Below are positions 951 through 13,348 of a stretch of DNA of 64,000 nt, piece by piece (position 1 is the first letter of the stretch; every line of letters starts with the position of its first letter). This DNA is from Escherichia coli. GTDB taxonomy: Bacteria; Pseudomonadota; Gammaproteobacteria; Enterobacterales; Enterobacteriaceae. Location: NCBI RefSeq assembly GCF_003018115.1, contig NZ_CP027457.1, one strand, 5' to 3'. The translations under genes and the position numbers were made by a program. The notes below the pieces were generated by a model. That model had not been told where the DNA came from. It ran no database searches and saw only the letters and a program-made list of their open reading frames with translations.

Positions 951-2267
951 TCAAGCGCGTTGACTGTCTTTCATCAACAAAGCGGTCATTGCGGAAATCA
1001 GGCATCCAGCCAGCAAATAAATGGCGACGCTATGCCAGTTCCCGGCAAAGTAAGTGATGAGTGCAGCGGCAATAAAAGGTGTAAATCCACCGCCAACCAC
1101 ACTGGCAACCTGATAACCGACTCCAGCGCCACTATAGCGATAACTGGCACCAAACATTTCGGTAAACATCGGTTGTTGCACACACACCACCATGTCATGC
1201 GCAATGTTTGCCAGCATTATGGAGAAGAAAACTATCCAGAAAATAGATTGTGCTTCAAGCGCCATAAAGAAAGGAAATGCGCTCAACGTTCCGATTAACG
1301 CACCTGTGATATAAACCCTGCGGCGACCAAAACGATCGGCAAGCCAGGCAAAACAGGGAATTGTCAGGCAGCTTAATCCACCTACCAGCAAACCAATATT
1401 AAGGAAAAGTTCGCGCGGTAACCCCATATTCTGGGTTGAATAATTAAGTGCAAAGGCGGTAACGATGTACATCGTCAGCAACTCGCACAGCCGTAGCGCA
1501 ATAATCTTCAGGAAAGCACCAGGATGTCGTAACAGCGCTTCGATAACCGGGATGCGTTTTTTCGCGGCAGCTTGATTATGTTGCTGTTGTTCAAATTCCG
1601 CGGACTCTTCCATGCCATTGCGCACCCACAATGCTCCCAGTACCAGTACGATGCTAAACAGGAAAGGAATGCGCCAGCCCCAGCTTAAAAACTGTTCGTC
1701 AGTCGTCATTATACTGATCAATGAAACCAGTCCGGTTGAAAGCAGTAAACCTACTCCGTAGCCAACTTGTACACCGCTACTGTAAAAGGCTTTTTTATTT
1801 TCCGGCGCACTTTCAACGGAAAGCAACGCCGCGCCTCCCCATTCGCCGCCGACGGCAAATCCCTGAATGGCACGCAGTGTCACCAGCAAAATAGGTGCCC
1901 ACCACCCAATGGTCGAGAATGAAGGAAGAATACCAATCAAGGCTGTCGCGATGCCCATCATCCAGACGGTCAGCATTAACATGCGCTTACGTCCCAGTCG
2001 GTCGCCAAAGTGACCGAAAATGACACCGCCGAGCGGACGGAAAAGGAATCCGACGCCAAAGGTGGCAAATGCGGCGAGCGTTCCCATAGCCGGGCTTACT
2101 TGCGGGAAAAACTCGCGATTAAAAACCAGTGCGGCGGTAATGCCATAGAGTAAAAAATCATACCAGTCGACGACGGCACCAGCGAAACTGCCTAACGCAG
2201 CTCGTCGGGCGCGACTTAACGAAAGCGTCCCTTCATCGGGACGAGTGGAGATGAGCGTGGAGTCCAT
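951..2267 (-). CDS. shiA: Shikimate transporter, MFS family (438 aa)
   Basis: 438-aa ORF with multi-TM MFS character (N-terminus MDSTLISTRPDEG...); length and position next to amn fit ShiA. Confidence 0.9.
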   Translation of the reverse strand: MDSTLISTRPDEGTLSLSRARRAALGSFAGAVVDWYDFLLYGITAALVFNREFFPQVSPAMGTLAAFATFGVGFLFRPLGGVIFGHFGDRLGRKRMLMLTVWMMGIATALIGILPSFSTIGWWAPILLVTLRAIQGFAVGGEWGGAALLSVESAPENKKAFYSSGVQVGYGVGLLLSTGLVSLISIMTTDEQFLSWGWRIPFLFSIVLVLGALWVRNGMEESAEFEQQQHNQAAAKKRIPVIEALLRHPGAFLKIIALRLCELLTMYIVTAFALNYSTQNMGLPRELFLNIGLLVGGLSCLTIPCFAWLADRFGRRRVYITGALIGTLSAFPFFMALEAQSIFWIVFFSIMLANIAHDMVVCVQQPMFTEMFGASYRYSGAGVGYQVASVVGGGFTPFIAAALITYFAGNWHSVAIYLLAGCLISAMTALLMKDSQRA

Positions 2268-2581
2268 AATGATCCTGTTTGTACTGTCTTTTTATAATTA
2301 GTATGGAAAAGGTAACTCACATTGCTGTCGATCTATAAACGAACCTTATGAGACTACCTCGACAGAGCGCATCTGCAAATGATTTTATGGCTGATGAGCA
2401 GCAACATGAAAAATTCGCTGGAAGATGAAAGCGCAGGAGTTGCTGGTGTTGTTTAAGGATTAAGCAGAGGCCCCACAGGTTCGAGATATGAAACATAAAA
2501 GTCCGCATATGCACAAAATTGCACCCTGATGATTCTGATAGACTGCATTGCATTATAACCAGTAGGGAGGCGAGGTTAGTT

Positions 2582-3634
2582 ATGTTTTTAGCATCATTGT
2601 TGAGACGTATTGTATTTAGTTACTACGATTATAAAGCTTATAATTTCAATATTGAAAAAACAGAGTTTGTTGTTATCCATATTCCCGATCAGATTGGCGA
2701 TGCTATGGCCATCTTTCCTGTTATTCGGGGGCTTGAATTGCATAAAATTAAGCATCTTTTAATTGTAACGTCGACAATTAATTTAGAAGTCTTTAATGCG
2801 CTCAAACTTGAACAGACTAAATTAACATTAGTCACAATGACTATGCAGGATCACGCAACATTAAAAGAAATAAAAGATTTAGCGAAGAACATAACACAGC
2901 AATACGGTACGCCGGATCTTTGTATAGAGGCGATGCGTAAAAAGAACCTGAAAACGATGTTATTTATCAGTCAGTTGAAAGCAAAAACGAATTTTCAGGT
3001 TGTTGGTTTAACCATGAAGTGCTATTCCCCTTTGTGTAAGAACGCGTCCCGGATGGATCAGAATCTCCGGGCTCCTGTACCCATGACATGGGCATTTATG
3101 ATGCGGGAGGCGGGTTTTCCAGCAGTCAGGCCAATATATGAATTGCCACTAAGTGAGGATGTACTCGATGAGGTGCGCGAGGAAATGCGATCGTTAGGAG
3201 CTTACATTGCGCTCAATTTAGAAGGTAGCTCGCAGGAACGTACATTTTCACTATCGATTGCAGAAAATCTAATAGAAAAAATTCAAAGTGAAACAGATAT
3301 ACCAATAGTGATCGTTCATGGACCAAAAGGGGAAGGTAAAGCCAGGGCATTAGTGGATTGTTATAATAATGTCTACCGTTTATCCTTATCACCCTCGATT
3401 AAACGTTCAGCAGCAATCATAAAAGATGCTTATATCGCAATAACTCCTGACACCTCAATATTACATATGGCAAGTGCCTATAATACCCCCGTTGTTGCAA
3501 TTTATGCTGATTACAAAACGCGATGGCCCGCAATGGCCGATGTTTCGGAGTCAGTCGTCGTTGGGCAAAAAATTGACAATATAAGTCTGGATGAATTCGC
3601 AAAGGCATTAAAAAGTGTTTTGGCGAGAATATGA
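2582..3634 (+). CDS. yeeL: Putative glycosyltransferase, GT9 (heptosyltransferase-like) family, apparently intact (~350 aa)
   Basis: Continuous ORF; ATG at 2582 preceded by GGGAGG; C-terminal motif region ...TPDTSILHMASAYNTPVVAIYADY... resembles GT9 enzymes. Position between shiA and yeeJ fits yeeL. Start could instead be the upstream in-frame codon at 2519. Confidence 0.6.
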   Translation: MFLASLLRRIVFSYYDYKAYNFNIEKTEFVVIHIPDQIGDAMAIFPVIRGLELHKIKHLLIVTSTINLEVFNALKLEQTKLTLVTMTMQDHATLKEIKDLAKNITQQYGTPDLCIEAMRKKNLKTMLFISQLKAKTNFQVVGLTMKCYSPLCKNASRMDQNLRAPVPMTWAFMMREAGFPAVRPIYELPLSEDVLDEVREEMRSLGAYIALNLEGSSQERTFSLSIAENLIEKIQSETDIPIVIVHGPKGEGKARALVDCYNNVYRLSLSPSIKRSAAIIKDAYIAITPDTSILHMASAYNTPVVAIYADYKTRWPAMADVSESVVVGQKIDNISLDEFAKALKSVLARI

Positions 3635-3850
3635 GGCAGTACTTATGAATAGTAATGCCGATCTGTTATGAACGGTGGTGTCATCAATACTCTGAGGCTG
3701 GTCAATCATCACAGAAAACCAGCCTTTAGATCAAAGCAGTACTCACCGAAAATGATCATAGTCACATCGAACGCGATTCTGGCGGTGCAGCATTTTTATT
3801 TATTCATTTTCTGTGAGAGAAGGGCAAGCTCTATAGAGGGAATGTAAAAA

Positions 3851-3876
3851 AGAGTGCCCCGAATGGAGCACTCTTT
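3851..3876. terminator. Hairpin between convergent yeeL and yeeJ (possible bidirectional terminator)
   Basis: Inverted repeat AGAGTGC...GCACTCT flanked by A/T runs, sitting between the two convergent stop codons. Confidence 0.4.
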
Positions 3877-3895
3877 AAGAAATTATAACGGAAAA

Positions 3896-11878
<7,983 letters not shown>

Positions 11879-12191: not shown

Positions 12192-12267
12192 TGGCTCCTC
12201 TGACTGGACTCGAACCAGTGACATACGGATTAACAGTCCGCCGTTCTACCGACTGAACTACAGAGGA
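12192..12267 (-). tRNA. asnT: tRNA-Asn (GTT)
   Basis: Reverse complement reads TCCTCTGTAGTTCAGTCGGTAGAACGGCGGACTGTTAATCCGTATGTCACTGGTTCGAGTCCAGTCAGAGGAGCCA, the canonical E. coli tRNA-Asn with CCA end. Confidence 0.9.
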
Positions 12268-13258: not shown

Positions 13259-13348
13259 GGAGAGATGCCGGAGCGGCTGAACGGACCGGTCTCGAAAACC
13301 GGAGTAGGGGCAACTCTACCGGGGGTTCAAATCCCCCTCTCTCCGCCA
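13259..13348 (+). tRNA. serU: tRNA-Ser (long variable arm; CGA anticodon type)
   Basis: Sequence GGAGAGATGCCGGAGCGGCTGAACGGACCGGTCTCGAAAACCGGAGTAGGGGCAACTCTACCGGGGGTTCAAATCCCCCTCTCTCCGCCA matches E. coli tRNA-Ser. Confidence 0.9.

Follow-up and report, generated by a model that had tools for sequence, protein, structure and literature searches.

The gene yeeL, located at positions 2582..3634 on the plus strand of a 64,000-nucleotide stretch of the Escherichia coli contig NZ_CP027457.1 (this whole stretch is called the window below), encodes a glycosyltransferase of the GT9 family with the GT-B type of fold. It is very probable that this assignment is correct and, at the same time, that yeeL came to adjoin the adhesin gene yeeJ only by the accident of the latter's insertion, with no functional pairing between the two. 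An earlier interpretation made from the letters of the sequence (the sequence-only reading) had proposed here an undescribed adhesin-glycosylation pair, which is contradicted by comparative data, YeeL being an uncharacterised member of a known enzyme family. In our opinion, the concept of an adhesin with its dedicated glycosyltransferase, which stems from an adjacency made by the insertion of yeeJ at the tRNA gene asnT, should not be propagated. As an overall explanation, it is rather probable that the window carries a functional GT9 allele, that its product takes part in an accessory modification of lipopolysaccharide (LPS) or a lipid-linked glycan and that the adjacency to yeeJ is accidental.

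The coding sequence (CDS) is intact and consists of 350 codons and a stop at 3632-3634. In the six-frame listing of open reading frames (ORFs), a single long frame of the plus strand, opened by TTG, extends over 2519..3634, and ATG at 2582 is regarded as the start because the N-terminus then lines up with those of orthologues from other genera. A Shine-Dalgarno-like GAGG was read directly in the sequence at 2572..2575 (plus strand), 6 nt 5' of this ATG, and a second purine-rich stretch, GGGAGG, at 2565-2570. The continuous ORF of about 350 amino acids described in the sequence-only reading coincides exactly with these coordinates, its frame being unbroken, and the convergence of yeeL with yeeJ, also described there, is confirmed, since yeeL lies on the plus strand and yeeJ on the minus strand with a 261-nt spacer between their stops. 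Thousands of RefSeq genomes already list the gene as coding for a GT9 glycosyltransferase, and that it is a pseudogene in strain K-12 is likewise on record.

Membership of YeeL in the GT9 family

The heptosyltransferase-like features noticed in the sequence-only reading were substantiated by a search with hidden Markov models (HMMs). YeeL matches the Pfam model PF01075 above its gathering score (29.6 bits vs a cut-off of 22, E=5.5e-7), the match covering residues 208-321 in the C-terminal lobe only; the closer relatives P0109-P0116 reach 39-52 bits with the same model. The NCBIfam equivalogs were not reached (TIGR02193, 37.7 vs 185.3; TIGR02195, 19.9 vs 134.6; TIGR02201, 16 vs 170.2), and because these scores for heptosyltransferases I, II and III are far below the cut-offs, YeeL is not an orthologue of WaaC, WaaF or WaaQ. 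In an alignment of 30 sequences, including YeeL, its orthologues, distant relatives and WaaC, WaaF, WaaQ and WaaU of E. coli K-12, the identity of YeeL to these K-12 GT9 enzymes is 13-16%.

Searches of PDB chains with the YeeL sequence and with the family profile gave nothing significant (WaaC appeared with E=0.1 and WaaF with E=1.5, TibC being absent at E<=10), and for this reason a comparison of folds was used. The AlphaFold2 model of YeeL, built on 24 orthologues, has a predicted local distance difference test score (pLDDT) of 85 and a predicted template modelling score (pTM) of 0.84, with only residues 142-162 poorly defined. Its best Foldseek matches are 3tov, WaaF and WaaC with E from 1e-12 to 5e-14. 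The model thus has two Rossmann lobes arranged as in the GT-B fold and is nearest to solved GT9 structures.

Five columns only are invariant in the 30-sequence alignment, namely G39, D40, D290, H295 and A299. The codons of Gly39-Asp40 (2696..2701, plus strand) correspond to the GT9 N-terminal "G-D" motif, which follows the first beta-strand of the model (residues 29-33), and Asp40 falls at the position of WaaC Asp13, which we take from the WaaC structure to be the catalytic base. The codons of Asp290-Thr291-Ser292-Ile293-Leu294-His295 (3449..3466, plus strand) represent the GT9 sugar-nucleotide motif and align with D261-T262-G263-L264-S265-H266 of WaaC in HMM and hhalign alignments, which also place R220 of YeeL on K192 of WaaC. 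Since D40, R220 and D290...H295 fall on D13, K192 and D261...H266 of WaaC, the GT9 catalytic apparatus of YeeL is in place. Asp-110 of TibC, a heptosyltransferase acting on an autotransporter, was reported to superpose on the same catalytic base, Asp13 of WaaC (PMC4358343).

No transmembrane segment was found in YeeL, and its N-lobe is basic (isoelectric point, pI, 9.5), the C-lobe being acidic (pI 5.0). A conserved N-terminal helix of its own, in which Asp16-Tyr17 is invariant, distinguishes the YeeL subfamily, which also has an insertion of some 20 residues (142-162) bearing invariant C147 and C152; the third invariant cysteine is C114. The codons of these cysteines (window positions 2921-2923 for Cys114, 3020-3022 for Cys147 and 3035-3037 for Cys152) are kept across the 24 aligned YeeL orthologues, and the three residues may constitute a metal site or a disulfide. 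Judging from sequence comparison, YeeL would belong to a distinct uncharacterised GT9 subfamily, being neither an orthologue of WaaC, WaaF, WaaQ or WaaU nor one of the bacterial autotransporter heptosyltransferases (BAHT).

The asnT site and the relationship between yeeL and yeeJ

A scan taking one genome per species returned 21 yeeL loci with flanks of up to 10 kb. Using tblastn with the barrel and passenger of YeeJ, a YeeJ homologue beside yeeL was found in one of the 21, which is an E. coli contig mis-binned as "Nanosynbacter", and neither an inverse autotransporter nor another YeeJ-like gene was detected within these flanks in the remaining 20, belonging to other Escherichia, E. albertii, Hafnia, Pseudocitrobacter, Erwinia, Pantoea and Rosenbergiella. 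In Pseudocitrobacter the order is amn and shiA on one strand, yeeL divergent from them, tRNA-Asn 50 nt past the yeeL stop and then mtfA, i.e., the E. coli layout minus yeeJ. According to ARAGORN, tRNA-Asn lies about 50-95 nt from the yeeL stop in genomes devoid of yeeJ (Pseudocitrobacter L011, Escherichia L008), and in Escherichia having a yeeL allele of 73% identity the yeeL stop is directly followed by tRNA-Asn and mtfA. In the cryptic-clade Escherichia sp. MOD1-EC7003, yeeL is 93% identical and is followed by mtfA, without yeeJ. Because Pseudocitrobacter and MOD1-EC7003 run from yeeL to mtfA without yeeJ, the latter is regarded as an insertion at the 3' end of asnT, where yeeL had been located before; asnT has been noted as an insertion site of islands (PMC5595812).

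The distribution of the two genes within E. coli was studied in 5426 complete genomes. The yeeL CDS was found in 5268 of them (~97%), with at least 80% of its length contiguous in 4939 (91%), and a probe spanning the 3' ends of yeeL and yeeJ was contiguous in 2654 (49%); genomes with at least 80% of the yeeL CDS therefore exceed those with a contiguous junction by about 2300. Surveys reported intact yeeJ in 35-40% of strains (PMC5595812, PMC6714894). Annotation and sequence were inspected in a sample of 25 genomes, 13 of which were taken at even steps of the yeeL-CDS ranking and 8 from the spread of the junction probe, together with K-12, GF3-3, M24 and the window. Both genes are intact in 7 of these genomes, only yeeL in 14, only yeeJ in 2, and both are broken in 2. 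An intact yeeL without yeeJ, the very finding that the sequence-only reading had named beforehand as speaking against a dedicated pair resembling Aah/AIDA-I and TibC/TibA, was encountered in 14 of the 16 genomes with broken or deleted yeeJ, vs 7 of the 9 with intact yeeJ (Fisher's exact p=0.60). The co-occurrence that this reading had proposed to check is consequently absent both within E. coli and across the 20 other loci.

YeeL was also compared with the BAHT enzymes themselves. TibC consists of 406 residues and has an N-terminal beta-barrel (1-97), an atypical four-stranded N-lobe, a thumb that is a beta-hairpin, and an iron finger made up of four conserved cysteines of the C-lobe (C339, C342, C358 and C370); it assembles as a dodecamer and recognises a beta-helical passenger (PMC4358343). 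In the YeeL model, 350 residues in total, the barrel of about 97 residues is absent, and helix 2-13 is followed by the Rossmann strand 29-33. The four-Cys iron finger is absent as well: the cysteines of YeeL are C114, C147, C152 and C260, and the sole one in the C-lobe, C260, is unconserved among orthologues. No hairpin thumb was found in the model, in which DSSP shows regular beta-alpha alternation over residues 209-349, and TibC is not the closest structural relative. Nor does yeeL have a co-inherited and co-transcribed substrate autotransporter of the BAHT style, as the two genes are convergent, with a terminator between them and no co-occurrence, and yeeJ is an insertion. Because every BAHT feature accessible to these comparisons is lacking, YeeL is not to be filed as a BAHT.

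In the window, shiA (951..2267, minus strand), coding for a shikimate transporter according to its ORF and the RefSeq annotation of orthologous loci, is the ancestral divergent neighbour of yeeL, and an AT-rich intergenic region of 314 nt (2268..2581) separates the two. The intrinsic terminator hairpin of yeeJ (3849..3876, minus strand; a 12-bp stem with a T tail) lies within the yeeL-yeeJ spacer. The gene yeeJ itself (3896..11878, minus strand; ATG at 11878, stop at 3896) codes for the long variant of an inverse autotransporter adhesin of 2660 amino acids, named in accordance with RefSeq and PMC5595812, in which Pfam recognises IAT_beta followed by 16 Big_1/Invasin_D3 Ig-like repeats. The tRNA-Asn gene asnT (12192..12267, minus strand; ARAGORN) is situated just beyond the start of yeeJ, so that yeeJ occupies the place between the 3' end of asnT and yeeL. 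A tRNA-Ser (CGA) gene at 13259-13348, downstream of the usual E. coli position of mtfA, together with asnT frames a tRNA-rich, island-prone region. The Rfam search of 2200-4000 gave nothing meaningful, and the PADLOC defence models gave no match.

The guanine plus cytosine (GC) content of yeeL is 39% vs 49-50% in the flanks, and that of yeeJ is 0.50. A recent import of yeeL together with yeeJ, considered in view of the low GC, was rejected because yeeJ is host-like in this respect, whereas yeeL orthologues in other Enterobacteriaceae and the outer-core waa genes of K-12 are low-GC too.

Several observations concern yeeL and yeeJ in particular strains. The contig L032 mentioned above (JARKOR010000252.1, from a metagenome-assembled genome (MAG) of "Candidatus Nanosynbacter sp.") has the order amn-shiA-yeeL-yeeJ, with amino acid identity to the window of 99% for Amn and ShiA, 97% for YeeL and 87% for the YeeJ passenger, and almost certainly comes from E. 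coli, having been binned into a Saccharibacteria MAG by mistake. A recurrent deletion remnant of yeeJ, composed of a pseudogene of about 2.1 kb and a beta-domain ORF of 711-750 nt, was found beside fyuA of the yersiniabactin high-pathogenicity island in loci L003, L021-L026 and L059-L062, including those of M24, A36, AZ 190, H22, NR3736, GPEC606, O26:H11 11368, 55989, ST131 and APEC E14033. Next to this remnant, yeeL is intact in all these named strains, with a clean ORF of 350 codons in ST131, 55989, O26:H11, APEC and others; in strain 21335 (L023), having the same remnant, it is annotated as frameshifted.

The allele of yeeL with 73% amino acid identity was found in L008-L010, L035, L046 and L052 (for example, E. 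coli E69, CP089930) and in L034 (E. whittamii). In three of these loci (L035, L046 and L052), the neighbouring ShiA and Amn show 97-98% identity and the genes follow the rearranged order yeeL-asnT-mtfA-serU-shiA-amn, which suggests that the allele was replaced or that the polymorphism is old, and that an inversion took place besides. The homologue of E. albertii (L004, L037), 66-67% identical to YeeL, occupies another chromosomal site, between tonB and yciA, so this gene was either moved or independently acquired. The nr entry P0074, called "glutathione transporter [Rattus norvegicus]", shares 76% of residues with YeeL in an alignment covering 88% of the length and is evidently a bacterial contamination or misannotation.

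Conservation, losses and probable role of YeeL

The statement in the sequence-only reading that yeeL is a pseudogene in K-12 proved to be right. In RefSeq, the K-12 orthologue bears the name "glycosyltransferase family 9 protein" and a pseudogene flag with the reason "internal stop", and the alignment proposed in that reading shows that the two genes are colinear, both being 1053 nt long without indels. Codon 235 (3284..3286, plus strand) is CAA (Gln) in the window, whose allele is intact, and TAA (stop) in K-12, owing to a single C-to-T change at nucleotide 703. Q235* is the sole lesion that makes the K-12 gene a pseudogene. The same mutation is present in E. coli MB06173, a seawater isolate from Galapagos (L057, 7746-8798), and the K-12 nonsense allele is hence one that circulates in nature and no laboratory artefact. 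Further inactivations include frameshifts in GF43 and 21335, which are single-base length changes and possibly assembly errors, IS1 insertions and many truncated proteins of Shigella sonnei. A frequent YeeL variant of 346 amino acids in E. coli (P0012, P0015 and others) has lost VLDE 194-197 of the inter-lobe linker in frame.

Apart from these losses, the gene is near-universal in E. coli and older than yeeJ at this locus. For 12 distinct E. coli alleles that are intact, the ratio of nonsynonymous to synonymous substitution rates (dN/dS) equals 0.22. Between genera, the proportion of nonsynonymous differences (pN) is 0.16-0.22 and synonymous sites are saturated (pS 0.70-0.82), and since pN is low while pS is saturated, dN/dS would be below ~0.1. 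All 24 aligned orthologues, with 52-97% identity, are full length and share 98 invariant columns. These data argue for yeeL being a working enzyme gene kept by purifying selection.

Some idea of the pathway may be obtained from more distant proteins. An exhaustive search of 1.8 billion cluster representatives gave full-length relatives at 25-37% identity, which share the N-terminal Asp-Tyr and I-G-D motifs with YeeL, and in five of the six readable contexts (including L027, L028, L053 and L054, with relatives of 30-36% identity) the gene is situated in an LPS or glycan locus. P0109 of Carnimonas is surrounded by GT4, kinase-like, GT9 and GT2 genes, two Wzy_C O-antigen-ligase genes, WecG and an initiating transferase; P0112 adjoins an epimerase of nucleoside diphosphate (NDP) sugars, GT2 and Wzy_C; P0257 adjoins Wzy_C, an initiating transferase, WecG and two GT2 genes; and P0124 is divergent from a GT8 gene. 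P0266, 26% identical, is a Wzy_C-GT9 fusion beside hldE, involved in ADP-heptose synthesis, an rfaD-like epimerase, a lipid A acyltransferase, GT2 and GT4. Such fusions of 777-780 amino acids were observed as P0149 and P0266 (L029, 7001-9343), and this protein is an undescribed ligase-glycosyltransferase fusion.

In Erwinia and Rosenbergiella, a gene of the major facilitator superfamily (MFS) lies about 155 nt upstream of yeeL on the same strand. A conserved MFS-transporter partner was rejected, since the transporters of Erwinia, Rosenbergiella and E. coli are unrelated (YdeE-like, NepI-like and ShiA; BLASTP E>1), and the small ORFs flanking yeeL in the first two genera have no family match and are unconserved.

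In view of the LPS loci of the relatives, the WaaC/WaaF-like fold and the basic N-lobe, a role in the metabolism of LPS or a lipid-linked glycan is supported best. More exactly, YeeL may be an accessory transferase acting on LPS core or other lipid-linked glycan with ADP-heptose as the likeliest donor, to which, on the strength of these comparisons, we would give a little under one half of our confidence. Such an enzyme would be a soluble or peripheral cytoplasmic inverting GT-B glycosyltransferase. Its basic N-lobe would dock on an anionic membrane-anchored acceptor, most likely the LPS core or other lipid-linked glycan at the inner face of the cytoplasmic membrane, and Asp40 would deprotonate an acceptor hydroxyl, which would then attack C1 of a nucleotide sugar bound in the acidic C-lobe. 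The donor would most probably be ADP-heptose, usual for GT9, and the product would be an accessory, dispensable modification, lost by K-12.

A number of points weigh against this role. The enterobacterial orthologues of yeeL are orphans without a conserved neighbour, the link with LPS coming from relatives of 26-36% identity only, and the sixth context among the distant relatives, that of P0258, is an orphan gene as well. The gene of one distant relative runs in the same direction as that of a GalE/RmlB-like epimerase beside it, in place of a heptose gene, which means that the donor of YeeL may not be heptose. Every main linkage in the five core types known from E. coli has, to our knowledge, already been assigned to a waa gene, and YeeL would for this reason have to give a glycoform that is minor or conditional. 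Upstream of yeeL (2268..2581), no consensus sigma-70 promoter was detected in the promoter scan. The gene is dispensable, being lost without obvious cost in K-12, some wild isolates and Shigella sonnei. Finally, no literature on the function of yeeL was found; the publications retrieved mention the K-12 locus only as a neutral integration site and as a secondary attachment site of phi80.

Other explanations have to be considered along with this one. That yeeL is a functionless, slowly decaying relic in E. coli, of which the window holds a copy just unmutated so far, is unlikely, although it would account for the independent inactivations (Q235* in K-12 and the seawater isolate, the frameshifts of GF43 and 21335, IS1 and the truncations in Shigella sonnei), the GC content deviating from that of the flanks, the result of the promoter scan and the treatment of the locus by K-12 engineers as neutral. 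The within-species dN/dS of 0.22 is also higher than typical for core genes, which fits decay; however, it is well below 1 and falls further between genera, the catalytic residues are invariant, the full ORF is present in 21 of the 25 inspected genomes, the contiguity of the CDS in 91% of the 5426 genomes points in the same direction, and the two frameshifts could be assembly errors. A similarly low probability is given to an action of YeeL on a non-LPS, non-protein acceptor, such as a small molecule or a further glycan, either lipid-linked or soluble, perhaps with a donor different from ADP-heptose. Such an action agrees with the location of yeeL outside the waa cluster without a conserved neighbour, with the pairing of one distant relative with the GalE/RmlB-like NDP-sugar epimerase and with the low heptosyltransferase I/II/III equivalog scores (37.7 vs 185), but it is opposed by the structural matches, the best of which include WaaF and WaaC (for the top one, 3tov, the description says no more than GT9 glycosyl transferase), by the preservation of the heptose-contacting Asp D261 of WaaC as D290 of YeeL and by the ligase fusion and the hldE neighbourhood, which point to LPS and heptose.

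Protein acceptors are less compatible with the data. The modification of a protein or surface substrate other than YeeJ, which would make YeeL a new non-BAHT protein-directed GT9, has a small probability: the absence of LPS neighbours of this orphan gene in Enterobacterales fits it, and the Asp16-Tyr17 helix or the Cys-bearing insertion 142-162 could recognise an acceptor, but the distant relatives belong to LPS and ligase clusters, no candidate substrate is conserved beside yeeL in any genus, and the basic N-lobe is, as we interpret it, typical of enzymes acting on anionic membrane acceptors. A very small probability is assigned to the bolder supposition that YeeL-type GT9s constitute a new non-BAHT class of protein-directed or otherwise non-LPS heptosyltransferases, in which the Asp-Tyr helix and the Cys insertion would recognise a surface protein, conceivably YeeJ or another adhesin in strains that have one; if true, wild E. 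coli would carry a glycosylation activity lost by K-12. As for YeeL being dedicated to YeeJ, with the passenger heptosylated in the cytoplasm before export, as by Aah on AIDA-I and TibC on TibA, its probability is minimal in our estimation, and comparative genomics has already largely refuted it. The conserved catalytic Asp and the fact that the genes adjoin each other in roughly one half of the E. coli genomes (2654 of 5426) are in its favour. Against it stand the intactness of yeeL irrespective of the state of yeeJ, the surplus of some 2300 genomes having yeeL over those with the contiguous junction, the lack of YeeJ-like genes within the flanks of up to 10 kb at the 20 other loci, the insertion of yeeJ between yeeL and asnT, the convergent arrangement with a terminator and without an operon and the absence of BAHT-specific modules. 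In addition, the passenger of YeeJ is an Ig-like Big_1 array, in contrast to the beta-helix gripped by TibC (PMC4358343); YeeJ is exported, surface-exposed and active in promoting biofilms in MG1655, a K-12 strain (PMC5595812), whereas the inspected K-12 record has a dead yeeL; and two papers on YeeJ (PMC5595812, PMC6714894) contain no word starting with "glycos".

Summarizing these data, it may be concluded that YeeL represents a small conserved uncharacterised GT9 subfamily, the deeper relatives of which are found in LPS-core and ligase clusters. The finding as it stands is of little weight, its outcomes being mainly negative and clarifying, and the LPS question is modest though testable. 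Should the LPS core of wild E. coli really receive a sugar from YeeL, K-12, the reference of LPS chemistry, would be devoid of a modification that most natural isolates can make, and phage receptors, serum resistance or innate immune recognition could be affected.

Comparison with known glycosyltransferase systems

The resemblance of YeeL to BAHT enzymes is limited to the catalytic Asp in the N-lobe (PMC4358343) and to the fact that yeeL of E. coli adjoins a gene of a type V adhesin; it differs from them in being convergent with this neighbour and forming no operon with it.

The likeness to WaaC (HepI), WaaF (HepII) and the GT9 protein of Veillonella with the structure 3TOV includes the Pfam GT9 domain, G-D after strand 1, Lys or Arg at the K192 position and D-T-x-x-x-H. 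Like WaaC and WaaF, YeeL is a cytoplasmic protein with a basic N-lobe. In contrast to them, it bears the additional Asp-Tyr helix at its N-terminus and the insertion of some 20 residues in which cysteines are conserved, it is dispensable, and its gene lies outside the waa (rfa) cluster, between shiA and yeeJ/asnT, the waa cluster of K-12 being elsewhere on the chromosome.

The relatives of the Carnimonas bestiolae type (P0109, P0112, P0257) and the fusion P0266 align with YeeL over the full length at 26-36% identity (E from 1e-62 to 1e-20), share its motifs and belong to the same length class. They are embedded among waaL-type ligases, GT2/GT4/GT8/GT9 and heptose-synthesis genes, whereas enterobacterial yeeL is solitary; the YeeL-like genes of the ligase clusters are uncharacterised too.

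One more enzyme suitable for comparison is WaaH (YibD), which belongs to a different glycosyltransferase family (GT2) and differs from YeeL in having a product of defined chemistry and a known mode of regulation. WaaH, inducible by PhoB, under certain conditions attaches glucuronic acid to HepIII in the inner core of E. coli LPS, and it gives a precedent for an accessory, conditional and non-stoichiometric modification of the LPS core such as that proposed for YeeL (PMC6358824).

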